The position numbers and the translations under genes were made by a program. A stretch of 53,859 bases of DNA, taken from Betaproteobacteria bacterium. Its GTDB lineage: Bacteria > Pseudomonadota > Gammaproteobacteria > Burkholderiales > SG8-39. The first letter of the stretch is position 1. Every line of letters starts with the position of its first letter. Below the pieces are notes generated by a model that was not told the origin of the DNA, ran no database searches, and saw nothing but the letters and a program-made list of their open reading frames with translations. The DNA lies in assembly GCA_031389685.1 (NCBI GenBank), contig JANMSV010000085.1:1-53859 (forward strand). Reading direction: 5' to 3'. This document shows positions 1 to 41,105 of this stretch, in pieces.

Positions 1-1502
1 CCGAGACCGCCGTGCGCCTCAAGTTCTCGGTGCGCGACACCGGCGTCGGCATCCCGCCGGAGGCGCAGCAGCGCATCTTCGATAGCTTCACGCAGGCCGA
101 CCAGTCGACCACGCGGCGCTTTGGCGGTACGGGCCTCGGCACCACCATCGCCAAACAGCTGGTCGAATTGATGGGCGGCAAGATCGGACTGGAAAGCGCG
201 GTTGGCCTGGGCAGCACGTTCTGGTTTGACATCGCATGCGAAAAGCAGCCGGAACGTGCGGGCGCCGGCGCGGGCGAACTGGCGGGCGCGCGCGTACTGC
301 TGGTCGGCTTTCCCGAGCCTCAAGCCCAGCCTGTCGCGCATTCGCTCGAGGCCTGGGGTGCGATCGCGGTGCAATGCGCGACGCTGGAAGAGTGCGGCGA
401 CCGCATCGTCGCCGACATTGCGCTCGCTAGGCCTTATCACAGCGTGCTGCTGTATTCCGAGCGCGGCGACCCACAACTCGCGCGGCGCCTGCGGCGCGCA
501 GCGCCCGAGCCGGCGCCGCCGGCGGTGCTGGCGGTGCCGCGCGAGGCCGAGGCGCAGCGCTTTGCCGCCCTGTCGGCGGGATTCAGCGCCGTGCTTGAAC
601 TGCCGTTCGAGAAGCGCCAGCTGTTCCACGTGCTGCACGCAATCTCCTCGGCGGACGAGGTGCGCGACGGCGTGGTGCGGCTACAGGATTACGCCAAGCG
701 GGGCCACGGCGCCAGGCGCCTGTCGGTGCTGGTCGCGGACGACAATCCCACCAACCGCGAGGTGCTGGGCCGCATCCTCGAGCGCGCCGGGCACGGCGTC
801 ACGCTGGTCGACGATGGCGACCTGGCGCTCGACGCCCTGGAGGGCGGCCATTTCGACATCGTGCTGCTCGATCGCAACATGCCGGGCTTGAGCGGGCTGG
901 AAACGCTGCAGGCAATCCGGCTGATGACGCGCGGCCGCGAGCGGCTGCCGGTGGTCATGCTGTCGGCGGATGTGACGCTGGAAGCGAAGCGCGAGTGCCT
1001 GGAGGCCGGGGCGGACAGTTTCGTGCCCAAGCCGGTGGAAGCCCTGCGCCTGCTCGACGAACTGCGTAGCCTCACTTCGGGCAAGCCGCAGGAGGCGGGG
1101 CGCGCCGCGCCCGACGCGGTGGCGGCCCCGGCGGGCGCCGAAGTGGTGAACACCGAGACTCTGGCGCACCTCGAGGACCTGGGCTCGACGCCCGACTTCC
1201 TGGAACGGCTGATCGGCGTATTCGTCGCCGACAGCCAGTCGCTGCTGGCGAAGATGGAAGCGTCGGTCGCGGCGCGCAATTTCGGCGATTTCCGCGCGCA
1301 CCTGCACGCCATGAAAGGCTCCGCGGCGAGCATCGGTACCGAGCGCCTGACGCGGCTGTGCGCGACGCTGGGCAAGAGTTCCGACGCCGAGCTGCGGCTG
1401 CAATCCTCGTCGCTGGTGCGCTCGCTGGACGAGGAGTTCGCCCAGGGGCGCTCCGCCCTGGAGCGCTACGTGCAGGATAAGCGCAGCCGCTCGGCGATTT
1501 AG
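1..1502 (+). CDS. Hybrid sensor histidine kinase, C-terminal part (HATPase_c, degenerate receiver-like spacer, REC, HPt); 5' end lies off-window
   Basis: The frame is open from the window edge. It shows ATPase G-boxes ([16 protein letters not shown]), a canonical receiver ([13 protein letters not shown]...[14 protein letters not shown]...FVPKP) and an HPt motif ([13 protein letters not shown]). Confidence 0.9.
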
Positions 1503-1589
1503 CGTCGCCGCGCCAGCCGCCGCCGCGCAGCGACGACGGCCTGTCCACTACAATTCCGGCTTCCGATCTTCTGGCGCAGGGTGTGACAC

Positions 1590-2501
1590 TTGGCTTGCGA
1601 CGACCGATCCGAGCCGGTAGTTGACGAGCAACTGCTGCGCATCCGCGCCGGCGACGGCTACGAGCTGGGCGCAATCCTCTACTCGGCGCGCACGGGCGCC
1701 GCGCCGCGGCGAGTCGTCGTCCTGCACGGGGGAGCCGGGATCCCGGCGCAGCGCTACCGGCGTTTCGCCCGCTTTCTCGCGCTGTCGGGCATGCCGGTGC
1801 TGACCTACGATTTTCGCGGCATCGGGCTGTCCCGCCCCTTGGCGCTGCGGGGATTCCGCTCGGTCATCGAGGACTGGGCGGAGTACGACTGCAGTGCGGC
1901 GATCGGCTGGTTGCGCGAGCGGTTCCCGCAGGCGGAGCTGATCGGAATCGCTCATTCGCTCGGCGCGCTGCTCTTTGGGGGGGCGCACAACGCCGCGGAG
2001 CAGGCCCGCCTGGTCCTGATCGGCGCCCATACGGGTTACTACGGCGACTATCGTCCGCTCTACCGGTGGCCGATGGCCGCGCTCTGGCACGGGCTGATGC
2101 CGGTGCTCACTCGCCTCATCGGCTATTTCCCGGGGCGCCGCTTGGGTTTCGGCGACGACATTCCCGCTGGCGTCGCGCTGCAATGGGCCGCGCGCCGTTC
2201 GTCCGACCTGCGACCCGCCGGCGCCAGCCCGGACGACGAGCGCACGCGCCGACTTCTCGACCGTTGCGCCGTGCTGGAGCGTCCCGCGCTCGTGATCCGG
2301 TTCAGCGATGACGCGTTTGCCACCGTCGCGGGCATGCGACGATTTCTCGCCTATTATCCACGGCTGTCGCCGCAGCACATTGTCTTCACGCCTGCCGACG
2401 GGGGCGTGCGCAAGATCGGCCATTTCGGCTTCTTCAGTCGCAGGGCCGGGCCTGCCCTGTGGCCCCGGTTGGTCGCGCGACTGCAGCCGCCGGTGCATTG
2501 A
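1590..2501 (+). CDS. Alpha/beta-fold hydrolase
   Basis: The 303-aa ORF has VVVLHGGAGIP and a nucleophile elbow (IAHSLGA). The only available start is TTG at 1590, so the start is uncertain. Confidence 0.7.
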   Translation: MACDDRSEPVVDEQLLRIRAGDGYELGAILYSARTGAAPRRVVVLHGGAGIPAQRYRRFARFLALSGMPVLTYDFRGIGLSRPLALRGFRSVIEDWAEYDCSAAIGWLRERFPQAELIGIAHSLGALLFGGAHNAAEQARLVLIGAHTGYYGDYRPLYRWPMAALWHGLMPVLTRLIGYFPGRRLGFGDDIPAGVALQWAARRSSDLRPAGASPDDERTRRLLDRCAVLERPALVIRFSDDAFATVAGMRRFLAYYPRLSPQHIVFTPADGGVRKIGHFGFFSRRAGPALWPRLVARLQPPVH

Positions 2502-2528
2502 GCGCCGCGCAAGGGGCCGCTCGGCGAT

Positions 2529-3467
2529 CTAGGCGGAGGCGTCGCGCTCCGCGCCCAGCGCGGCGAGCGGCGCGCGAGCGCGCGAATCCTCGGGGATGCC
2601 GGCGGCGCGCCGGACCGCCCGGGTGGTCTGGCCTGAACCGTCGGCCCTCCAGCCCGGCGGGCCGAAGGCGAGGCCCAGCGCCTCCCGCCAGCTGCGCGCA
2701 GCGCGCAGGTCCTTGAGCAGTGCCACCCATTCGGCGAACGCGATTTTCACCGGATTGAGCGTGTCGATCTGGCGCACCAGGCCGTAGGTGCGGGGCGCTC
2801 CGGCGCGCTCCACGGCAAAGGTGCCAAACAGCTTGTCCCAGAGGATCAATACCCCGCCGTAGTTGCGGTCCAGGTACTCGGGTTCGACGGCGTGGTGCAC
2901 GCGGTGGTGCGAGGGCGTGTTCAGCACCGCTTCCAGCAGCCCCAGCTTGGGCACCACTTCGGTATGCAGCCAGAACTGGTACAGCAGGTTGGCCGCGTAC
3001 ATGAAAACCACGGCGCGCGGGTCGAAGCCGAGCAAGCATACCGGGACCAGGAACAGCCACGGCCCGGCGAAAAACTGCGTCCAGCCCAGGCGGTAGGCGA
3101 CCGAAAGCGTGATCTGGCGCGCCGAGTGGTGCACGCTGTGCTGCGCCCACATCCAGCGGATCTGATGGCTGAAGCGGTGCAGCCAGTAGTAGGCCAGCTC
3201 CACGGCGAAGAACAGCGCCACCCAGCTCTCCCAGCGGTCCATTGGAATGTCGAAGGGCCGTAGCTGGTAGGCGGCGACGTACACCGCCGCCACCAGCGCC
3301 TTGGTGAGGGCGTCGGTCCCGAGGCGGCCGATGGCCACGGCGAGATTGGAGGCCGTGACCTTCCAGCCATATGGCCGGTGCAAGGCGACACGGTAGTACA
3401 CCGCCTCGAGCGCGATGGCGATGAAAAACACCGGCAGCGTCATCAGGTAGAGCTTGATCGGGTCCAT
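2529..3467 (-). CDS. Fatty acid hydroxylase / sterol desaturase family membrane di-iron enzyme
   Basis: Histidine boxes HRFSHQ, HSVHHS and HHRVHH sit in a hydrophobic protein. I place the start at ATG 3467 (MDPIKLYL). Confidence 0.8.
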   Translation of the reverse strand: MDPIKLYLMTLPVFFIAIALEAVYYRVALHRPYGWKVTASNLAVAIGRLGTDALTKALVAAVYVAAYQLRPFDIPMDRWESWVALFFAVELAYYWLHRFSHQIRWMWAQHSVHHSARQITLSVAYRLGWTQFFAGPWLFLVPVCLLGFDPRAVVFMYAANLLYQFWLHTEVVPKLGLLEAVLNTPSHHRVHHAVEPEYLDRNYGGVLILWDKLFGTFAVERAGAPRTYGLVRQIDTLNPVKIAFAEWVALLKDLRAARSWREALGLAFGPPGWRADGSGQTTRAVRRAAGIPEDSRARAPLAALGAERDASA

Positions 3468-3523
3468 GGGCGTTGCTTTACTTGATCGGCTTGCCGGCAC
3501 GAGACTGGCGCTACAATCCCGCG

Positions 3524-4189
3524 ATGTCTTTTTTCATCGAGTTGGTCGAAAGTTCCGACGCCAGCCGCCGCGCGCTCGAGGTGGAGCCGCGCGTGCACGC
3601 GATGGTCCACCACGGGCTGGAGCTGCCCGAATACCGCGCCTTCCTGCACGACCTGTACCACATCGTGTGGCACTTCTGCCCGGCGATGGCGGCGGCTGCG
3701 GCGCGCTGCGGCGACGAATTCCGCGACGTGCGTTACGCGCTGTACGAGCGTATCGAGGAGGAAAAGGGGCACGAGGCGTGGGTGCTGGAAGACATCGGGG
3801 CGATGGGGGGCGATGTCTCCGCGGCGCTCGCCAAGCCGCCGAGCGTTCCGGTGCAGGCGATGATCGCGTACAACTACTACGCGGCCGAACGCGTGCACCC
3901 GTGCTCGGTGCTGGGCATGCTCTACGTGCTCGAAGTGATCTCCTCGGTGTACGGCGGGCGCGTCTCGGACGCGATCGCACGCAGGCTCGGGCGCGACGTG
4001 GCCGCGGGCGGATTCAAGTTCCTGACCTCGCACGCGTCCATGGACCTCGACCACATGGCGAGCCTCAACCGCCTCGTCAAGACGGTGCAGGACCGCGCCG
4101 CGCAGACGGCGATCATCCGCTCGACGCTGGTGAACTTCCATCAGTTCGGGCAGATCTTCAGGATTGGCGGCCCGCTGGGCCCGGCATAG
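3524..4189 (+). CDS. Heme-oxygenase-like iron-containing redox enzyme family protein (HDO/Haem_oxygenas_2-like)
   Basis: The helical protein carries EEEKGHEAW and SHASMDLDH carboxylate/His motifs typical of this fold. The start is ATG 3524 (MSFFIEL), with no SD upstream. Confidence 0.65.
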   Translation: MSFFIELVESSDASRRALEVEPRVHAMVHHGLELPEYRAFLHDLYHIVWHFCPAMAAAAARCGDEFRDVRYALYERIEEEKGHEAWVLEDIGAMGGDVSAALAKPPSVPVQAMIAYNYYAAERVHPCSVLGMLYVLEVISSVYGGRVSDAIARRLGRDVAAGGFKFLTSHASMDLDHMASLNRLVKTVQDRAAQTAIIRSTLVNFHQFGQIFRIGGPLGPA

Positions 4190-4193
4190 GCGT

Positions 4194-5120
4194 TCAGGCC
4201 ACCGCCGACATGGCTTCGGCGGCGATGTCGGTGATGCCGCCGTCTTCCAAGCGCCGCATCTGCGCACGCACCACGCGGCCCATCATGCGCAGGTCCTTGT
4301 CCTCGAGCCGCAGCGCGCAGTCCACCCAGGTGTCGGCGACCGCGTCGAGTTCCTCGCGCGTCACCGGGAACACCTGCTGGCGAGCGCGCAGCACGCCCTG
4401 CAGGCCGTTCCTGCGCTTGGCGTTGGCGGCGATCCAGTCGCGCACCGCCACCTCGCCCTCGCCGTCCTTCGCCAGCACGTCGACCACGCCCATTTCGTGC
4501 AGCTTGGCGGCGCTCAGCACGCGGCCGGACAGGATCAGGCGTTCCGCGTCGCGCATGCCGATGCGCCGTGCGAGCAGGCTGTAGGCGCCCATGCCCGGGA
4601 ACAGGTTGAACAGGATCTCCGGCAATCCCATCTGTGCCGATTCTTCCGCGACCACGAGGTCGGAGGACAGGGCGGTCTCGAATCCGCCGCCCAGCGCGTC
4701 GCCCTGCACCAGCGAGATCGTGGTCACCGTCGGGCAGCCGTAATTGCTGATGCGCGCGTGCACGTTGTCGATGCACAGCCGCGCATAGTGCGCGAGCGCA
4801 TCGCGGTCGCGTGCCTTGATCAGCAGCAGGAACAGCGCCAGGTCGCCGCCGAGGTTGAACACCTTGGGCACGCGCGAGGCGGCCACGTACCAGTTCACCC
4901 TGTTCAAGTCGCCCGCGAACTCGACGCGTCCGCCGTTGGCGGTGAGCGCCTGGTCATGGTCGCGGATCTCCTTGAGGATGCCGAGATTGAAGCAGGCGTT
5001 GCCGCGCTGCCTCATGAATCCCCACAGCGTGCCGCTGGCAGGTTCGAACTCGAATTCCAGTTCAGAGTATTTTCGCGCGCACGGTGCGCGCAGGCCGATG
5101 ACGTCGCTCATGTTGCTCAT
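4194..5120 (-). CDS. rpfF: DSF-family signal synthase, RpfF-like crotonase (dehydratase/thioesterase)
   Basis: Blocks match Xanthomonas RpfF as I recall it: VFNLGGDLALF, LVQGDALGGGFETALS, MGLPEILFNLFPGMGAYS, LRMMGRVVRAQ. Both catalytic Glu positions are present. ATG 5120 is preceded by GGAAGGAG. Confidence 0.8.
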   Translation of the reverse strand: MSNMSDVIGLRAPCARKYSELEFEFEPASGTLWGFMRQRGNACFNLGILKEIRDHDQALTANGGRVEFAGDLNRVNWYVAASRVPKVFNLGGDLALFLLLIKARDRDALAHYARLCIDNVHARISNYGCPTVTTISLVQGDALGGGFETALSSDLVVAEESAQMGLPEILFNLFPGMGAYSLLARRIGMRDAERLILSGRVLSAAKLHEMGVVDVLAKDGEGEVAVRDWIAANAKRRNGLQGVLRARQQVFPVTREELDAVADTWVDCALRLEDKDLRMMGRVVRAQMRRLEDGGITDIAAEAMSAVA

Positions 5121-5349
5121 TTGCTGCTCCTTCCCTGATGAAAAGCCCCCTTGGCGGGAGCCGTTGCCCGAGGTCCGGACACGGCGACAAGCCGTGCGAA
5201 CCTCCCCGGAGTCATTTAACGCTCTTTGACAATGCCCGTGCAAATCGGGGAATACCCGAGGTGCGCCCCGGGGATTGGCTGAGTGCCCGGAAATGAGAGA
5301 CGCCGGGCAGCCTGGAATGTGTGCGATATTTCCGCTTCCACGGCTCGTG

Positions 5350-5379
5350 TTGTAAATCCGACACACAATCGGTTATAAA
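5350..5379 (+). promoter_or_regulatory. Possible sigma70 promoter for the 5421 ORF (TTGTAA-18 nt-TATAAA)
   Basis: The hexamers lie at 5350-5355 and 5374-5379 in a locally AT-richer divergent intergenic region. Confidence 0.3.
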
Positions 5380-5420
5380 GGGGCCGTTTTGCGGCGCTAC
5401 GCAGAGTCCGGAGGGGCAGC

Positions 5421-5657
5421 ATGTACGCGATCGTGTACAAGTCCGACGGCTTCCCGGTATGCCGGCAGCTTTCCGGAGTCAGCCCCGATCCCGTCGTGAC
5501 CTGGAATACCGAGGCGGCGGCGAAAGCTTTCATTTCCACCAAGGGCGGCGACAAGGATTTTCAGGCGGTCGCCCTGACCGACGAGGCGATGGACAGGATG
5601 GCCAAGTCGATGGGCTGCACTGTGGAATCGATCACCTTCGACCCCTACCCGGGATAA
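5421..5657 (+). CDS. Hypothetical small protein (78 aa)
   Basis: GGAGG lies 6 nt upstream of the ATG and codon usage is G/C3-rich. I recognise no family. Confidence 0.55.
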   Translation: MYAIVYKSDGFPVCRQLSGVSPDPVVTWNTEAAAKAFISTKGGDKDFQAVALTDEAMDRMAKSMGCTVESITFDPYPG

Positions 5658-20329: not shown

Positions 20330-21526
20330 CTACGTCAACACGATGAGGGCTGCCACGATCAGTCCCGCGACGGCGCCCGCCGCCACGATGGCGGTGTCGC
20401 GCCGCTTCCAGCCTCCGCTCATGGCCATGGCCGTGGTCTGCATGGTGAGCGGGAGGGTGCTGGCCGTCGGGTCGTTCGCCTGCGCGGTGTCGCTCAGCGC
20501 GACCAGGCGCTGAGTCGCCTCCAGGGAATCGAATGTGCGCGACAGCCCGCGCGCCGGTGCCGGGTCCGGGGACGGCGACTCTTCCTCGGCGCGTCGCGAG
20601 CGCTCCACGGTCTGCGCCAGGAACGCCGATTTCACTTCGGCGTCCACCACTGCGGGCGCGAGCGCCGCCAGTGGCAGCGTGTTGGTGGCGCTCGGCGCGC
20701 CGTGCACCTGGTGCTCGCATTCACGCAGGCCACGGGCGATTTCAGCGGCGCTCTGGAACCGTTCCTCCAGCGCCTTGGCAAGCATTTTGCTCACGATCGC
20801 ATCGAGCGCGCTGGGCGCCGCCGGGTTGATGGCGCTCGGCGAGGGCGGCGCGAAATTCACGATCTGGTACATCACGGCGTTGACGCTTTCGCCGGTGAAC
20901 GGCGCCGCCCCCGTCAGCATTTCGTACAGGATCACGCCGAGCGAGAAGATGTCCGAACGATGGTCGGCGCGCTTGCCGATCACCTGCTCGGGAGACATGT
21001 ACTTCGGCGAGCCCATCATCATGCCGGTCTGCGTCTGCACGTTCGAGGAGCGCATGCGCGCGATGCCGAAATCCGTGATCTTCACCGCGCCGCTCTCGGG
21101 CACCATGATATTCGCCGGCTTGATGTCGCGGTGCACCACGCCGCGCTCGTGCGCGTAGGCCAGTCCCTCCGCCACTTGCGCCGCGATCGTCAGCGCACGC
21201 GGCACCGGCAACGGCTTGCCGGGCAGGAGCAGAGTGCGCAACTCTGCGCCCTCGATGTACTCCATCGCCATATAGCAGGCGCTCTCGGTCTTGCCGATGT
21301 CGTACACGGTGACGATGTTGGGATGGTTCAGTCCGCCGGCGGCGCGCGCTTCCTGGTAGAAGCGCTTCTCGTACATTTCCGCGCCGTCGCGGTCCATGCT
21401 CATATTGATGGTCTTGATGGCCACGGTGCGCTCGAGCATCGGGTCCTTCGCCTTGTAGACGATGCCCATCGCTCCGCGGCCGATCTCGGCGAGGATCTCG
21501 AAGCGGCCGAGTTTGTTCTCGTCCAT
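20330..21526 (-). CDS. Hanks-type Ser/Thr protein kinase, C-terminally tail-anchored
   Basis: GRGAMGIVYKA, AIK, HRDIKPANIM, TDFGIAR and YMSPEQ are present. A single TM helix sits at the extreme C-terminus (AIVAAGAVAGLIVAALIVLT). Confidence 0.9.
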   Translation of the reverse strand: MDENKLGRFEILAEIGRGAMGIVYKAKDPMLERTVAIKTINMSMDRDGAEMYEKRFYQEARAAGGLNHPNIVTVYDIGKTESACYMAMEYIEGAELRTLLLPGKPLPVPRALTIAAQVAEGLAYAHERGVVHRDIKPANIMVPESGAVKITDFGIARMRSSNVQTQTGMMMGSPKYMSPEQVIGKRADHRSDIFSLGVILYEMLTGAAPFTGESVNAVMYQIVNFAPPSPSAINPAAPSALDAIVSKMLAKALEERFQSAAEIARGLRECEHQVHGAPSATNTLPLAALAPAVVDAEVKSAFLAQTVERSRRAEEESPSPDPAPARGLSRTFDSLEATQRLVALSDTAQANDPTASTLPLTMQTTAMAMSGGWKRRDTAIVAAGAVAGLIVAALIVLT

Positions 21527-22043: not shown

Positions 22044-23219
22044 TCAGCGAAAGTGATGGCTGACCTGCACGGGCGTCCCGGCTTTCACGTCGACGCGCTG
22101 CAGGAGCGGCCTGAAGGACCCGTTTCGCACTTCGATCAGGTGCGGGCCGGCCGCGAGTTCCACCGTGCGCAGCGGTGGGCTGACGCCGCGTCTCTTGCCG
22201 TCCACGAACACCTCGCCCCAGGGAAGGACGATGAGCTGCACGACCCCGGTGGTGGCGGCTTTCGCCGGCGCGGCTGCCACACTGGTCGTCGCGGCCTGGG
22301 CGCGCGCCGCTTTGGCGGCCAGCGCCTCACGGCGTGCAGCCTTTTGCGCGGCAGTCAACTGCTTTCGAGGGGGCGCAGCTTCGGCGGGCGCTGTTACTGA
22401 TGGTTTTTCGGGGACCGGGGCGGTGTCCGCCGGCACGGACGCCGGCTTGAACACTTGAATTTGCGCCAATGGCGCAGGCTTCATCGCGGTCTGCACAGGC
22501 TTCATTTGAGCGCGCACCGCGACACCCCCGCCGACCAGCAGCGCAAACGCGAGCGGGGCACTGAGCAGTGCGATGCGGTGCACGCCGAACGGGCGCGCGT
22601 CGGTGAGTTCGCCGATCAGCCGCGGCGTGCCGCGGCGCGGCGCTACGCGCCGTGAACTGGTCTCGATCACGCGCCGCGCGGCATCCGTGCCGATGCCCAC
22701 GGAGTACACCTCGTGCTCGCGCACGTGCTTGTCGGTGCGCGCCCCTACGTAGCTGAACAGGCTGGCATAGTCGAGCGACAGGCACGACACGACCTCGTAA
22801 TACGAGCGCGACACCAGCAATTGTCCCGACTGCGCGAACGTCATCACGCGCTGGGCGACATTGATGCCGTCGCCGATGATGTTCATTTGCCCGTTGATGT
22901 CCTTCACCAGGCGCACCGGACCCAGGTTGACGCCGATGCGGATGGAGATCGCGCCCGTGGCCTCGGCGCGCGCCGCGGCCCGCAGCGACATGGCGACGAA
23001 CAGCGCGTCTTCGGGATCGCCGAGGAAGGTGATGCCGGCGCCGTCGCCGGTGTCCAGAACCACGCGGTCGCGCGGCACGACGTTCTCCAGCGCGGCGCTG
23101 AGCAGCTTGTTGAACGCCTGTTTGAGCAGCAATTGCTCCGCCACCGGCTTCGTCGAATACTCGACGATGTCCAGGAATACGATGCTGCAAACCAGCGTGC
23201 GGCTGGGATGTTCGATCAT
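22044..23219 (-). CDS. Class III adenylate/guanylate cyclase - TM - Ala/Pro linker - PEGA domain protein
   Basis: The cyclase core shows VFLDIVEYST, DTGDGAGITF, IGVNLGPV and GDGINVAQRV. The TM segment is IALLSAPLAFALLVGGGVAV. The C-terminal PEGA-like segment is VLPWGEVFVDGKRRGVSP...GPHLIEVRN. Confidence 0.8.
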   Translation of the reverse strand: MIEHPSRTLVCSIVFLDIVEYSTKPVAEQLLLKQAFNKLLSAALENVVPRDRVVLDTGDGAGITFLGDPEDALFVAMSLRAAARAEATGAISIRIGVNLGPVRLVKDINGQMNIIGDGINVAQRVMTFAQSGQLLVSRSYYEVVSCLSLDYASLFSYVGARTDKHVREHEVYSVGIGTDAARRVIETSSRRVAPRRGTPRLIGELTDARPFGVHRIALLSAPLAFALLVGGGVAVRAQMKPVQTAMKPAPLAQIQVFKPASVPADTAPVPEKPSVTAPAEAAPPRKQLTAAQKAARREALAAKAARAQAATTSVAAAPAKAATTGVVQLIVLPWGEVFVDGKRRGVSPPLRTVELAAGPHLIEVRNGSFRPLLQRVDVKAGTPVQVSHHFR

Positions 23220-33093: not shown

Positions 33094-33904
33094 ATACCGC
33101 GATCGGCGCCTTGATCGCCGGATGCGGTTCGTAACCCTCCAGCGTGAAATCCTCGTATTGGAAGGCGAACACATCGCGCACCACGGGATTCAGGCGCATG
33201 CGCGGAAACGCGCGCGGTTCGCGCCGCAACTGCTCGCGCGCCTGCTCCAGGTGGTTGAGGTACAGGTGCGCGTCGCCCAGCGTAAGTACGAACTCGCCTG
33301 GCTGCAGGCCGGTGACCTGGGCAACCATCCGCGTCAGCAGCGCGTAGGAGGCGATGTTGAACGGTACGCCCAGGAACAGGTCAGCGCTCCTCTGGTACAT
33401 CTGGCAGGACAGGCGCCCGCCGGCGACGTAAAACTGGAACAGCGCATGGCAGGGCGGTAGCGCCATGCGCTCCACGTCCGCCGGGTTCCACGCGCTCACC
33501 AGATGGCGCCGCGAATCGGGCCGCGCGCGAATCGCTTCCACCACCTGCCGGATCTGGTCGATTTCGCGCCCGTCGGGCGTGCGCCAGTGGCGCCACTGGT
33601 AACCGTACACCGGACCAAGCTCGCCCTGCGCGTCCGCCCACTCGTCCCAGATGGTGACGCCGTGCTGCTGGAGCCAGCGCACGTTGGTGTCCCCACGCAG
33701 GAACCACAGCAGTTCATAGGCGATCGACTTGAGATGCAACTTCTTGGTGGTGAGCAAAGGAAAGTTCTGCGCCAGCCCGAAGCGCAGCTGCCGGCCGAAG
33801 ACCGAACGGGTCCCGGTACCGGTGCGATCGGTCTTGAGCGCGCCCTCCTGCAGTACCTCGGCCAGCAGGTCGAGGTACTGCCGCTCGCCGGGATCGGGGC
33901 TCAT
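33092..33904 (-). CDS. thyA: Thymidylate synthase
   Basis: [31 protein letters not shown] and DAHLY are present, with near-colinear similarity to E. coli ThyA. The ATG overlaps the upstream kinase stop (ATGA). Confidence 0.97.
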
Positions 33905-35148
33905 ACCGCGATCATCGCAAATAATTCGCGCGCGCTCTGAAAACGCGCTTCGGGTGCCTTGGCGAGCAGTTTTTCGAGGATGCTCTGGTACCCGGCGAGC
34001 CGTCCCGGCAAGCGGGGAATCGGCCCGTGCACGTGCTGGTACACCAGGTCCGCGGGACCCGCGATGCCGTAGAGCGCCTGGCCGCTCAACATCTCGTAGA
34101 ACATCACGCCGAGGCTGTACAGGTCGGAGCGGTGGTCGGCGGGCTTGCCCAGGCATTGCTCGGGGCTCATGTAGCGCGGCGTGGCAATCACTTCGCCGTG
34201 CCGCGTAAGCATGGCCTTTGCACCGAGGTCCTTGGCGAGCCCGAAATCCACGATCACCGGCCGTCCGTTGTCGCGGAACAGGATGTTCTGCGGTTTGAGG
34301 TCGCGGTGAATGATGCCGTGCGCATGGATGGCATCGAGCGCACGCGCGATCTGGGACGTGATGCGCAGCGCCGCGAGCGAGTTGAGGCCCTCGTGGATGC
34401 GCGTGGCGAGCGTGCCGCCCGACAGGTACTCCATCGCTATATAGGGGTGCTCGCCGGCGAAGCCCTGGTCGTAGATGTGCGCGACGTACTCGTTGTGCAG
34501 GCCGGCCACCAGTTTGTATTCCTGCACGAAGCGCTTGAAGAAAGTGCGGTCCGAGCGCAAATGCGGGTCCAGCACCTTGAGCACCAGCTGCAAGCCGTCC
34601 TGCTCGCGCTCGGCGAGGTACACCTGCGCCATCCCGCCCTCGCCGATTTTGCACAGGCTGCGGTATCCCGGGATCGCACGGTCGTCGCGGTCGATCGGTG
34701 TGCCGGCCTTGCGCGAGTCCAGCTGCGTCGTGCGCTGGAAGGCCGGTGGGCCGGACGCGTCCGCGTGGCGCGCCTCCCACTCTCGCAGCGCGTCCTCCAC
34801 CGCGCGCACCAGATTCTCGGCGCCGAGGCCGCTCTTGCAGAGGACGCCGGCGGCACCGGGCTGGATGCCGTTTCGCGGCGGATTGTCACCCTCGGCTTGG
34901 GCGAAGATCAGCACGGGCGGGGCCTGGGGATCGCGCAGAATCTCGGCCGCCCAGTCAGGATCGGCCTCGCCTTCGGGCGCCACGCCCAGCAACACCGCCG
35001 CGTAGCGTTCGCGGTCCAGCGCGGCCCGCGGGCTGCCGCGCTCCCGCGGATCCCACTCGTCCGTGAACGCCAGGGGCCAGCGGGCGCGCAGCATGCCGGC
35101 GAGCGTGCTGCAGAACTCGCGGGAAGGGTCCACGATGAGAAAGCGCAT
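33901..35148 (-). CDS. Receiver-like domain fused to a Hanks-type Ser/Thr protein kinase
   Basis: The N-terminus is CheY-like (MRFLIVDPS...AAVLLGV...VLIFAQ). The kinase part has [32 protein letters not shown] and YMSPEQ. The start is ATG 35148; the alternative is 35175. Confidence 0.85.
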
Positions 35149-35240
35149 AGAGGCGGCGTGACGCGATTTTCTCATGATTGCGCCGTGCGGCCGGGCAAGA
35201 ACTCCCTGCGGGGCGCCCGCAGGCATCGAAATCGGGTGAA

Positions 35241-35915
35241 TCAGGGATTTGGTGCGAGGTGCCTGGCGAGCCAGGCGGCGATGTCGGCGATTTCTTCGGC
35301 GCACAGCGAATGCGGCATGGCGTATTCCTGCCACTGCACCGCGTAGCCGAGGGCCTCCAGCGCCGCGCGCGATTCGCGCGCGCGGCCAATATCGATGACC
35401 GGATCCTCCCCGCCGTGCGCCATGAACACCGGCGCGTCGCGGTTGGCGTCGCTGCGCTCTGCCGCCAGCGTGGTCGCGAGAGGCAGGTAGGTCGATAGCG
35501 CCAGCACCCCGGCCAGGCGCTCCGCGTGGCGCAGCCCGGTGTGCAGCGCGATGGCGCCGCCCTGCGAGAAGCCGGCGAGCGCGATGCGCGCGCTGGCGAC
35601 GCCGCGTGCTCGCTCGCGTGCGATCAGCGCCTCGACCAGGCCCTGAGAGGCGCGGATGCCTGCCGCATCCTCGGGGCCGCCGCCCATCTGCAGGATGTCG
35701 TACCAGGCGCGCATGCGCATGCCCATGTTGATGGTCACCGGGCGCATGGGCGCGTGCGGAAACACGAAGCGCAAGCGCAGCTTCGCCGGCAGCCGCAGTT
35801 CCGGCACCACTGCTTCGAAGTCATGGCCGTCGGCACCCAGGCCATGCAGCCAGATCACCGTCGCGTCGGGCGCGGGAGCGGTCTCGATTTCAATTGCATC
35901 AGGCAGTTGCGTCAC
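35241..35915 (-). CDS. Carboxylesterase/phospholipase family alpha/beta hydrolase (Abhydrolase_2)
   Basis: VIWLHGLGADGHDF, GFSQGGA and the MAHGGEDPV..H triad context are present. The GTG start overlaps the mog stop. Confidence 0.85.
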   Translation of the reverse strand: MTQLPDAIEIETAPAPDATVIWLHGLGADGHDFEAVVPELRLPAKLRLRFVFPHAPMRPVTINMGMRMRAWYDILQMGGGPEDAAGIRASQGLVEALIARERARGVASARIALAGFSQGGAIALHTGLRHAERLAGVLALSTYLPLATTLAAERSDANRDAPVFMAHGGEDPVIDIGRARESRAALEALGYAVQWQEYAMPHSLCAEEIADIAAWLARHLAPNP

Positions 35916-39276: not shown

Positions 39277-39912
39277 ATGAACCTGAAGATCGAAATCGTG
39301 TCCGACGTCATTTGTCCCTGGTGCTACATCGGCAAGCGCCGGCTGGAAAAGGCGCTCGCCCTGGTGGGCGCCGAGGTGACTCCGCAGGTGAGCTGGCTGC
39401 CGTTTCAGCTCAACCCGTCGATGCCCCGCGAAGGGATGCCGCGGGCCGATTACCGCCGCGCCAAGTTTGGTTCGGCGCAGCGCGGTCGCGAGCTGGACGC
39501 GCGCGTCGCCGCGGAGGGTCGCGGCGAGGGAATCGAATTCGCGCTTGAGCGCATTGAGCGCACGCCCAATACTTTTGCGGCGCACCAGTTGATCGACCTC
39601 GCACAGGAACAGGGCGTAGGCGGCGCGGTGGTGGATGCCCTGTTCCATGCGTACTTCGAGGAGGCGCGGGACACTGGAGACGCGCAAGTCCTGTTGCAGT
39701 TGGCCGAGGCGGCGGGACTGGCACGCGGCGCGATGCAGGCGCGCTGGGCCGACGCTGACCAGGGGCGGCGCGTGGCGCAGGTGGAAGCAAGCATGAAGGA
39801 ATACGGCATCAGCGGTGTGCCGACCTTCATCCTCAACCGCAAGTCCGGGGTGTCGGGGGCACAGCCCCCAGAGGCGCTGGCGGCGGCGATGCGCGAGGCC
39901 GCTACGCCGTAA
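39277..39912 (+). CDS. DsbA-family (FrnE/HCCA-isomerase-like) thiol oxidoreductase
   Basis: SDVICPWCYIGK (CPWC) and GISGVPTF are present. Confidence 0.85.
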   Translation: MNLKIEIVSDVICPWCYIGKRRLEKALALVGAEVTPQVSWLPFQLNPSMPREGMPRADYRRAKFGSAQRGRELDARVAAEGRGEGIEFALERIERTPNTFAAHQLIDLAQEQGVGGAVVDALFHAYFEEARDTGDAQVLLQLAEAAGLARGAMQARWADADQGRRVAQVEASMKEYGISGVPTFILNRKSGVSGAQPPEALAAAMREAATP

Positions 39913-40477
39913 AGTCCAGCCGGTCGTTGCGCAGGACGCCATAGATGCGCATCGCCGGACGATTGTGCAGCTCCAGCGGCGGCAGCGGCTGGGCGTCCAG
40001 CTCCAGCTCCGCCACCGACAACACGCCCATTACCGCGTCCGAGAGCACCAGTTCGCCGGCGCGGGCGCGGTGCACCAGCCTTTCCGCGATGCTCACGCAG
40101 TCGCCAAAGACCACCGCATTGCGCTGCGCGGCGGGTCCGGCTTCGCCATACACTGCCTCGCCGCGATGCACGCCGAGCGCGATGGCCGTGCGCAAGCCGT
40201 ATTCGCGCTCCCAAGCCTGCACCACCGCGTCGAACTCGTTGAACAGCTGCTGCGCGGCGCGCACCGCGGCCCGCGCCAGGTCCTCCGGCGCGAAGTCGCG
40301 GAACGCCGCCATCAGGGAGTCATTGTGGACCGCCATGGTCTGGCCGCCGTTGGCCGCCACCGCCTGGGCCGCGCAGTCGAAGAACTGGTCGGCCAGCGCC
40401 AGCACTCGCGCCGGCTCGAGCATCTCCGACATGCGGGTGAAATTGCGCACCTCGGCGATCAGGATCACCGACTCCAC
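39902..40477 (-). CDS. Stand-alone class III nucleotidyl cyclase domain protein
   Basis: ILIAEVRNFT, HNDSLMAAF, ALGVHRGEAVYG and FGDCVSIAERL are present. The start is uncertain (GTG 40477 or TTG 40510). The first metal-binding Asp position reads Glu. Confidence 0.65.
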   Translation of the reverse strand: MESVILIAEVRNFTRMSEMLEPARVLALADQFFDCAAQAVAANGGQTMAVHNDSLMAAFRDFAPEDLARAAVRAAQQLFNEFDAVVQAWEREYGLRTAIALGVHRGEAVYGEAGPAAQRNAVVFGDCVSIAERLVHRARAGELVLSDAVMGVLSVAELELDAQPLPPLELHNRPAMRIYGVLRNDRLDFTA

Positions 40478-40502
40478 GCGCTCCGCCGACGGGTTGGTCG
40501 CC

Positions 40503-41105
40503 TTAGCCAAGGAGCGCGAATAGTGCCACGATGAAGACCACGAGGGCGCCGGCCGCAAGGAACATGAGCGAGGCATTGGACACCGTCGGCAGGTCCGGGT
40601 CGCGCGGTACCGGCTCCGCGTGCTGCGCCTCCAGTGCGGGCGCCGGCCCGTTGCCCGCGCCGTGCTGCGCGCCCACCTTTTCGTTGAATGCGGCAAAGAA
40701 ATCCTGGGAGATTTTCTTCGCCGCCGCGTCCACCAGGCGCGAGCCGATCTGCGCGAGCTTGCCCCCGACGTTGGCCTTTACCTGGTAGCTGAGCTTCGTG
40801 CCCTTGCCCTCGGGCGCGAGTTGCACCTGGGCCGAGCCCTTGGCGAAGCCGGCGCCGCCGCCCTGGCCCTCGAAGGCGATGGCGTAGGAGTGCGGCGGGT
40901 TGAGGTCCGAGAGCACCAGCTTGCCCTTGAACTTGGCACTCACCGGGCCGATGCGCGCCACCATCAGCACCTGGTACTCGTTATCGGCGAGGGGCTCGAT
41001 CGACTCGCAGCCGGGGACGCAGGCCTTGAGCATCTGCGGGTCGTTAAGTGCGCCCCAGGTATCGGCTTGCGACGCCGGGATGCGCTCTTCTCCGGTCATT
41101 TCCAT
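40503..41105 (-). CDS. coxG: CoxG-family SRPBCC protein with a C-terminal TM anchor
   Basis: ACVPGCES, GPVSAKFKG and GGKLAQIG are present, with a hydrophobic C-terminus. Confidence 0.85.
   Translation of the reverse strand: MEMTGEERIPASQADTWGALNDPQMLKACVPGCESIEPLADNEYQVLMVARIGPVSAKFKGKLVLSDLNPPHSYAIAFEGQGGGAGFAKGSAQVQLAPEGKGTKLSYQVKANVGGKLAQIGSRLVDAAAKKISQDFFAAFNEKVGAQHGAGNGPAPALEAQHAEPVPRDPDLPTVSNASLMFLAAGALVVFIVALFALLG

Follow-up and report, generated by a model that had tools for sequence, protein, structure and literature searches.

A putative Xanthomonas-type rpf locus of an uncultured soil Burkholderiales bacterium with a candidate signal-tailoring cassette between rpfC and rpfF

The diffusible signal factor (DSF) of Xanthomonas campestris is cis-11-methyl-2-dodecenoic acid, and its turnover in Xanthomonas involves RpfB, an acyl-CoA ligase that feeds beta-oxidation. 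In Burkholderia cenocepacia, the synthase Bcam0581 is paired with a cytoplasmic receptor, RpfR, with a PAS-GGDEF-EAL architecture. To our knowledge, the known DSF-family signals vary only in the length and branching of the chain and in one additional double bond, and this variety is ascribed to the pool of fatty-acid precursors rather than to enzymes dedicated to tailoring. The heme-oxygenase-like dimetal oxidases (HDOs), the FA_desaturase family and the cytochromes P450 all include enzymes whose substrates are free medium-chain fatty acids. Here we describe a locus at the start of contig JANMSV010000085.1 (assembly GCA_031389685.1; 53,859 nucleotides (nt), 68% G+C), which stems from an uncultured soil Burkholderiales bacterium and is referred to in its entirety as the window. 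The locus encodes a candidate DSF synthase, part of a hybrid kinase and, between the two, three enzymes of lipid-related families. The explanation that we consider best overall, with a probability of roughly 0.6, is that it is an rpf locus with a signal-tailoring cassette.

Genes were called from a listing of open reading frames (ORFs) together with Pfam and NCBIfam profile scans of the window proteins. Locus neighbourhoods were compared by tblastn, using the window proteins as queries, across 85 loci (given L numbers below): 80 fetched genome loci encoding crotonase relatives and five contigs with the closest homologues. The locus itself consists of five genes, with protein lengths in amino acids (aa):

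1-1502 as an open frame (ORF 12-1502), plus strand: fragment of an rpfC-type hybrid kinase (Pfam HATPase_c, REC, HPt)
1590-2501, plus strand: alpha/beta hydrolase, 303 aa (PF12146/PF00561)
2529-3467 or 2529-3500, minus strand: membrane His-box protein of the FA_hydroxylase / sterol desaturase superfamily, 312-323 aa (PF04116)
3524-4189 (ORF from 3473), plus strand: HDO, 221 aa (PF14518, 'iron-containing redox enzyme')
4194-5120, minus strand: rpfF-type crotonase, candidate DSF-family synthase, 308 aa (PF00378, PRK08788)

The gene orientations across the locus (kinase, hydrolase, hydroxylase, HDO, crotonase) are +,+,-,+,-, as the initial annotation of this DNA had described them, and the Pfam matches agree with the three enzymes that it had named, an alpha/beta hydrolase, a His-box hydroxylase/desaturase and a heme-oxygenase-like di-iron enzyme.

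Judged by its sequence, the crotonase is a member of the DSF-synthase family and a candidate DSF synthase. The annotation had called the product of 4194-5120 an RpfF-type synthase on the strength of the blocks GGGFETALS, GLPEILF and LFNLFPGMGAYS; all three are found in the protein, and the assignment is supported. Against NCBIfam PRK08788, the crotonase scores 356 bits (cut-off 177), compared with 398 bits for the characterised Bcam0581 (5fus) and 386 bits for a Xanthomonad-type RpfF (7zq7). The suggested comparison with RpfF, Bcam0581 and DspI, carried out as a sequence search of the PDB, matched it clearly better to RpfF-type enzymes than to DspI or an ordinary enoyl-CoA hydratase: the solved RpfF and Bcam0581 structures (6dgn, 5fus, 3m6m, 7zq7) were found with E values of about 1e-53 and 181-184 bits, the best ordinary enoyl-CoA hydratase with 62 bits (4e-16) and DspI (5wyb) with 51 bits (1e-12). 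It is 37% identical to Bcam0581 and 42% identical to the Xanthomonad-type RpfF. Glu148 (GGGFETAL) and Glu168 (GLPEILF) align with the catalytic Glu contexts in 6dgn, 5fus and 7zq7 and are invariant across 12 family members; in X. campestris RpfF, we take the catalytic residues to be Glu141 and Glu161, in GGGFE and PE contexts. The ATG at 5120 is preceded by an AAGGAG Shine-Dalgarno sequence. The family comprises more than 7,900 clusters at E <1e-10, mostly from Burkholderiales metagenome bins, and many of these clusters carry the JGI label 'DSF synthase'.

The crotonase scores 216 bits against NF053515, the Xanthomonadaceae RpfF equivalog, which is under the 550 cut-off. This was considered as evidence against a DSF synthase and dropped, since Bcam0581 fails as well (185 bits; the Xanthomonad-type RpfF 7zq7 reaches 519 bits) and both proteins pass PRK08788. 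Because a characterised synthase also scores below the cut-off, we take NF053515 to define the Xanthomonad orthologue group only.

The kinase gene is cut by the contig edge, since its reading frame is open to base 3 of the window. The window holds residues ~341-840 of a kinase of ~840 aa, that is, the 3' 60% of the gene, comprising the end of HATPase_c, a pseudo-receiver (nt ~264-707), a REC domain (nt ~726-1064) and an HPt domain (nt ~1209-1376). The Pfam domains bear out the earlier description of a hybrid kinase with RpfC-like HATPase-REC-HPt architecture beside the synthase. In the nearest relative, L085, the crotonase is 94% identical to that of the window. The kinase fragment aligns with residues 344-838 of the full-length L085 kinase at 89% identity, a match that covers all 495 residues open to comparison. 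The HisKA domain lies off the window here and is present in the L085 and L010 kinases. Full-length kinases of relatives, of ~840 aa, have an N-terminal motif and then a hydrophobic segment of several helices ahead of HisKA, HATPase, REC and HPt.

In X. campestris RpfC, the sequence R-A-D-S-E-H-A-Q lies beside the first membrane helix, and Arg15, Asp17, Ser18, Glu19 and Gln22 are essential for DSF binding, with Thr tolerated, even better, in place of Ser18 (PMC5391125). The RpfC sensor part of the present kinase is off the window, and the N-terminal motif was read in relatives: in 38 of the 85 loci, R-x-D-[ST]-E-H-x-Q, with all five essential residues at the same spacing, stands immediately ahead of the first membrane helix. 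Close relatives have the form R-P-D-T/S-E-H-E-Q, which is present in the nearest relatives wherever the contig extends that far. In the L085 kinase, A-R-P-D-S-E-H-E-Q is followed by four hydrophobic stretches with room for about five helices.

Directly upstream of the kinase gene in relatives, on the same strand, lies a gene for a 363-aa REC+HD-GYP protein (PF13487; HD_5) with the motifs LHDIGKI and HHEKYDGSGYP. This arrangement is found in each of the 28 close-clade loci with enough sequence upstream and in 52 of the 85 loci overall. In L085, the gene overlaps the start of rpfC by 4 nt, giving the order crotonase / HDO / hydroxylase / hydrolase / rpfC (839 aa) / rpfG (363 aa), and L010 encodes the same type of protein. 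The hybrid kinase gene is adjacent to and convergent with the crotonase gene in the window and in nearly all of the 85 loci. Because L085 and other relatives combine the docking motif, the convergent arrangement and the upstream REC+HD-GYP protein, the kinase is best read as an RpfC orthologue and the scaffold as the canonical Xanthomonas-type rpfG-rpfC pair convergent with rpfF. From synteny with relatives, rpfG would almost certainly be present in this genome, off the contig edge, and we assign the core of the locus to the rpf system with high confidence.

These results alter the picture drawn from the window alone. The annotation had reported that the canonical DSF partners were missing, and indeed no HD-GYP, GGDEF/EAL or acyl-CoA ligase genes were found in 1-5657 or among the 20 larger ORFs scanned elsewhere in the window. 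However, the kinase appears to be RpfC itself, and rpfG lies upstream of it in L085 and in all of the close-clade loci that extend so far. The missing partners are thus an artefact of the contig edge, since the window begins inside rpfC. The description of the neighbourhood as non-canonical does not hold, as the rpfG-rpfC/rpfF scaffold recurs in L085 and about 50 loci, and the suggestion that the adjacent kinase senses the signal gains support from the docking motif in the relatives' RpfC orthologues.

One feature of the kinase departs from this scaffold. The pseudo-receiver between HATPase and the true REC domain (fragment residues 85-232) matches the kinase's own REC profile in hhalign (probability 96%, E 3.8e-9), and its acidic pair, its phospho-Asp (now Tyr) and its conserved Lys are all substituted. 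It was recovered by tblastn in 34 other loci and is absent from the 745-aa kinase of Noviherbaspirillum galbum; X. campestris RpfC, which presumably has ~726 aa, would have no room for it. The pseudo-receiver could serve as a docking surface, for instance for RpfF.

In most loci with crotonases no more than 55% identical to that of the window (among them Methylophilaceae, Nitrosomonadales, Zetaproteobacteria, Methylopila and Derxia), fewer than 150 bp separate the stop codons of rpfC and rpfF. The window's own clade, made up of soil Burkholderiales bins, has an occupied junction with varying contents, the HDO gene being the most frequent occupant:

HDO only: 10 loci, e.g. L003 and L005-L010
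HDO and FA_hydroxylase: L002, L011, L013
HDO, FA_hydroxylase and hydrolase: the window and L085
HDO and P450: L004 (9692-11023) and L012
HDO, a broken second HDO copy and a membrane FA_desaturase: L016 (870-3488)
HDO and a Coq4-family protein: L044 (8950-9771)
Truncated HDO, Coq4 and hydrolase: L083/L084
HDO, an acyl carrier protein (ACP) and a ketosynthase (379 aa): L081 (9808-11339)/L082
Hydrolase only: L019-L023, L025, L027
Empty: L024, L026, L028-L030

Only enzymes of types that act on lipids or other hydrophobic substrates were found in the junction of the examined loci, and no transposases, transporters or regulators. The HDO gene is linked to rpfF in 26 loci and the window, down to an HDO identity of 42%, and in six Oxalobacteraceae-type loci (42-57% identity) it again lies between rpfC and rpfF. 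In the cultured strain N. galbum 17J57-3 (L033, 3752-8945), it is part of a same-strand operon encoding a REC-EAL protein (408 aa), an RpfC-like kinase (745 aa), the HDO and an RpfF-like protein, and a similar same-strand REC-EAL/rpfC/HDO/rpfF operon is found in the cultured Herbaspirillum sp. CPCC 101687 (L035). In the N. galbum operon an EAL phosphodiesterase takes the place of the HD-GYP output protein, a substitution that fits an output that degrades cyclic di-GMP (c-di-GMP). In more distant lineages, homologues of the hydrolase (44-46% identity) are encoded beside rpfC or between rpfC and rpfG in L047, L055-L057, L060 and L062, in L057 accompanied by a fatty-acid desaturase. Loci whose crotonase is more identical to that of the window also tend to have a more identical HDO (Spearman 0.78, Pearson 0.92, n=25), as expected for long-term co-inheritance. 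As to the co-occurrence of all five genes, which the annotation had proposed to examine, HDO and hydrolase recur with rpf genes, and the exact trio is restricted to the window and L085.

Two candidate interpretations of the junction were discarded. The P450s of L004 and L012 are nearest to CYP170A1 and P450 BM3 and not to CYP152, so that the junction enzymes do not mirror the 1-alkene synthases UndA, UndB and OleT; a weak lead in that direction is left only for the HDO and the desaturase. A 198-aa ORF in L016, which seemed to be an additional protein present in every locus, is an antisense frame of the broken second HDO, as high-G+C DNA gives long antisense ORFs.

The three junction enzymes of the window all look catalytically competent from their conserved residues. 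The hydrolase gene starts 87 nt downstream of rpfC on the same strand. Its product, which matches PF12146 (48 bits) and PF00561 (35 bits), is assigned as a lipase/esterase-type serine hydrolase: Ser123 (AHSLG), Asp241 and His278 are invariant in 17 rpf-linked homologues, and it weakly resembles mycobacterial monoacylglycerol lipases in the PDB, with whose nucleophile motif its own aligns. The hydroxylase scores 102 bits against PF04116 (cut-off 31) and 65 bits against the OlsE equivalog, far under the cut-off of 475; a sequence search of the PDB gave no hits. All four aligned rpf-linked copies of full length (window, L085, L002, L011) have the same His boxes, HRFSH, HSVHH and HHRVHH, and a partial fifth copy is present in L013. 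The start of the hydroxylase may be at 3467 rather than 3500.

The HDO most likely starts at the ATG at 3524 and not at the TTG at 3473, because the resulting 221 aa match the length of nearly all of the 120 homologues listed. Its gene converges with that of the crotonase, with the stop codons 4 nt apart. The protein scores 70.7 bits against PF14518 (cut-off 28.9), and its AlphaFold model (predicted local distance difference test score 89.5) has a seven-helix heme-oxygenase-like fold. Foldseek relates this model to 3dde (template-modelling (TM) score 0.82-0.83), CADD (0.82) and UndA (0.73-0.79), all at 14-21% identity. The identity to UndA is 14-16%, and a sequence profile search does not find UndA. 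Asp43, Glu80-x-x-His83, Glu84, Glu137 and His170-x3-Asp174-x2-His177 are invariant in 27 rpf-linked copies; from a motif pattern typical of HDOs, these His and carboxylate residues are the predicted dimetal ligands.

By analogy with the characterised systems, the crotonase would dehydrate a 3-hydroxyacyl-ACP and free a cis-2-enoic fatty acid. This signal would dock on the short N-terminal sensor of RpfC, and a phosphorelay through HisKA, REC and HPt would activate the REC+HD-GYP phosphodiesterase RpfG and lower c-di-GMP. The clade-specific cassette of hydrolase, hydroxylase and HDO would most likely act on the acyl chain of the signal or of its precursor, with its enzymes hydroxylating or desaturating the chain or releasing it from a lipid or thioester, and lineages with different cassettes would make different DSF-family 'dialects'.

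That the cassette is functionally linked to the signal seems probable to us. The main argument for such a link over chance insertion is that the same enzyme families recur with rpf genes in independent arrangements. The ACP and ketosynthase in the junction of L081 point to a role in precursor supply or biosynthesis, since RpfF-type enzymes use acyl-ACPs. Across lineages with different cassettes the docking motif is unchanged, a hint that the sensed molecule retains its head group; a retained head group fits tailoring or turnover of the chain better than decarboxylation of the active signal. Whether the role of the cassette is tailoring specifically, rather than turnover, we regard as evenly poised. 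On a broader and distinctly tentative proposal, the junction would be a site of diversification, at which an orphan HDO subfamily with interchangeable partners (hydroxylase, P450, desaturase, Coq4, serine hydrolase, ACP with ketosynthase) yields undescribed DSF-family signals (oxygenated, more desaturated or remodelled in another way). Closely related soil lineages would then use different fatty-acid 'dialects' through the same RpfC/RpfG pathway.

Several observations weigh against the reading of the locus as an rpf system with a signal-tailoring cassette. Besides the window, L085 alone has the exact trio, and unstable cassette content also fits an insertion hot-spot. Gamma-glutamyltranspeptidase, which has no obvious lipid role, is likewise often inserted upstream of rpfF in relatives. 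The HDO gene lies on the rpfG-rpfC strand and not on that of the synthase, and the structures nearest to its model are 3dde, of unknown function, and CADD, of unrelated function. For this genome, rpfG and the RpfC sensor are placed by way of its relatives. We know of no oxygenated DSF-family signal, and a search of open-access papers found no literature linking RpfF or DSF to HDOs, His-box hydroxylases, P450s or desaturases. The earlier suggestion that the enzymes between synthase and kinase may remodel the signal stands as a possibility and is strengthened by the comparison of loci: varying lipid enzymes at the junction and the recurrence of HDO and hydrolase make a link to the signal plausible.

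The main rival to tailoring is turnover of the signal. On this account, the core rpf system works as proposed, and the cassette, above all the HDO, oxidises, cleaves or decarboxylates the released signal to reset or limit signalling. In the loci with HDO only, the HDO gene lies ~80-115 nt downstream of rpfC on the same strand and would be expressed with the sensing arm. The absence of an rpfB-like ligase gene near rpfF, in the window and in the relatives examined, also agrees with this account, as do the inclusion in the HDO superfamily of UndA (TM score 0.73-0.79), which destroys medium-chain fatty acids by oxidative decarboxylation, and the constancy of the RpfC docking motif despite differing cassettes, which fits a sensed molecule with an unchanged head group. 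However, the ACP and ketosynthase in the junction of L081 appear biosynthetic, the N. galbum HDO is encoded inside an operon with rpfF, and the identity to UndA is only 14-16%. We consider turnover unlikely as an explanation of the cassette.

A little less likely still is that the junction and nearby intergenic regions simply tolerate insertions, the enzymes serving unrelated membrane-lipid or secondary metabolism. The cassette differs even among relatives whose crotonases are 86-94% identical to that of the window, the hydroxylase gene keeps its own orientation, and HDO copies are truncated in L083 and, for one of the two, broken in L016; other positions around the locus have taken up gamma-glutamyltranspeptidase and, in L006, a P450 homologue. 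Against such a hot-spot, the same families accompany rpf genes in independent positions and orientations (the HDO operons of L033 and L035; the hydrolase with rpfC-rpfG in L055-L062), the divergence of HDO and crotonase is correlated, and the junction itself holds only lipid-type enzymes. Finally, an orphan RpfF-type synthase that lacks RpfC, RpfG and RpfR and stands in a non-canonical neighbourhood beside an unrelated hybrid kinase would agree with a window devoid of HD-GYP, GGDEF/EAL and acyl-CoA ligase genes, but is highly improbable given that the window begins within the kinase gene, that the 89%-identical full-length L085 kinase has the RpfC sensor motif with REC+HD-GYP ahead of it, and that about 50 loci show the canonical arrangement.

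On the other side of rpfF lie two further features:

5121-5262, minus strand: promoter-like region and ~95-nt rpfF leader, with blocks conserved in an alignment of upstream regions
5421-5657, plus strand: 78-aa ORF divergent from rpfF, conserved in the close clade

In the window, an inverted repeat, CGGGGAATACCCG, adjoins a -35-like TTGCAC, followed by an 18-nt spacer and a -10-like TTAAAT. Within the leader lie a long hairpin, a G+C hairpin that leads into a U-run, and the Shine-Dalgarno sequence. An alignment of 19 rpfF upstream regions (among L001-L037, L081 and L085) reveals conserved blocks: the inverted repeat has the form C(A/G)GGGA-N0-3-TCCC(T/C)G, without mismatch in L085 and L019, and abuts a -35-like TTGC, and a 17-18-nt spacer leads to a -10-like T(T/C)TAAT before the leader. 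The long hairpin varies in sequence between loci, and the G+C hairpin/U-run can pair with the Shine-Dalgarno sequence. The region could possibly combine an operator with an attenuator or translational control of the synthase. A conserved RNA structure in the leader was considered and is not established: RNAalifold on the MAFFT alignment recovered only three pairs of the G+C hairpin, and z-scores of single-sequence folds were mixed, ranging from -4.2 to +1.7. The leader has no match in Rfam, and a scan for consensus promoters and terminators gave nothing significant.

A gene for an FAD-dependent oxidoreductase (PF12831, ~476 aa) lies 177-300 nt upstream of the crotonase gene on the same strand in L002, L005, L011, L013, L014 and L081; the window has no such gene. 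Co-transcription with rpfF is not indicated, because the promoter-like element and the leader stay directly upstream of rpfF, between the two genes (L002, L005, L011, L081).

The 78-aa ORF (MYAIVYKSDGFPVCRQ...FDPYPG) is found with 69-87% identity in 30 close-clade loci, always on the strand opposite rpfF; a Pfam search gave no match. Because it stays with the dNK/panC flank when genes intervene between it and rpfF, it probably marks the border between the rpf island and the housekeeping flank and would not be part of the system. Beyond the locus follow the housekeeping genes dNK, folK, pcnB, a HAD hydrolase gene, hda, perM and purM, and further along the window metG, apbC, two Ser/Thr kinase genes, an NtrC-type pair and genes for a molybdenum hydroxylase, a malonyl-CoA decarboxylase and glyA. 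The genes at 20330-21526, 33901-35334, 22044-23219 and 39902-40696, all on the minus strand, encode two Ser/Thr protein kinases of eukaryotic type and two proteins that have adenylate/guanylate cyclase domains; as far as can be told, these cyclase-domain and kinase genes are unrelated to the rpf locus. Scans of the window found no tRNA genes and no matches to Rfam families. Among the comparison loci, the bins of L001, L012 and L018 are labelled 'uncultured Enterobacteriaceae'; these labels are probably wrong, because gene content and a G+C content of 64-70% match the Burkholderiales bins.

The rpfF/rpfC/rpfG system is already known in Betaproteobacteria, and the core of the present system is ordinary. 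What is new is a variable oxygenase cassette and an orphan HDO subfamily that accompanies rpf loci in more than 25 genomes. If the proposed link to the signal is correct, the conserved HDO at the junction with its changing oxygenases and hydrolases would provide genetic evidence, the first of its kind, that DSF signals are tailored or oxidatively turned over by enzymes. The uncharacterised HDO subfamily, whose nearest solved relative is the orphan structure 3dde, would gain a candidate substrate class. The rpfC-HDO-rpfF arrangement in two cultured strains makes the idea directly testable. The apparent lack of partners at a contig edge is also a caution for window-based scans.

Set beside the rpf cluster of X. 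campestris, the locus is alike in its convergent rpfF and rpfC, in an rpfG upstream of rpfC on the same strand (as seen in relatives) and in a crotonase with both catalytic Glu residues. The relatives' kinases likewise resemble X. campestris RpfC in the R-x-D-S/T-E-H-x-Q motif, the membrane input and the HisKA-HATPase-REC-HPt order, and their RpfG is a REC+HD-GYP protein. The locus differs in the distance of its crotonase from the Xanthomonad-type RpfF (42% identity; 216 versus 550 bits for NF053515), in lacking an adjacent rpfB, in the extra pseudo-receiver of the kinase and in the one to three accessory enzymes at the junction, and some Oxalobacteraceae have REC-EAL in place of REC-HD-GYP as output. 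With RpfF_Bc of B. cenocepacia (Bcam0581; 5fus/6dgn), the crotonase shares membership of PRK08788, 37% identity and an origin in the Burkholderiales. In contrast to the Bcam0581/RpfR pair, the locus would take the two-component route through membrane-bound RpfC and through RpfG, and it has no RpfR-type gene beside it.

The HDO of the window shares with UndA the predicted heme-oxygenase-like dimetal fold and a full set of putative His and carboxylate ligands, and the membrane FA_desaturase-family enzyme or P450 in the junction of relatives recalls the setting of UndA and the desaturase-like UndB, a second enzyme that oxidises fatty acids. Unlike UndA, to which it is 14-16% identical, the HDO has 3dde and CADD as its closest structures, and the P450s are not of the decarboxylating CYP152 type. 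As in RpfB-dependent turnover, an accessory fatty-acid enzyme that may act on the released signal is encoded beside rpfF; in place of a ligase, the candidates here are oxygenases and a serine hydrolase.

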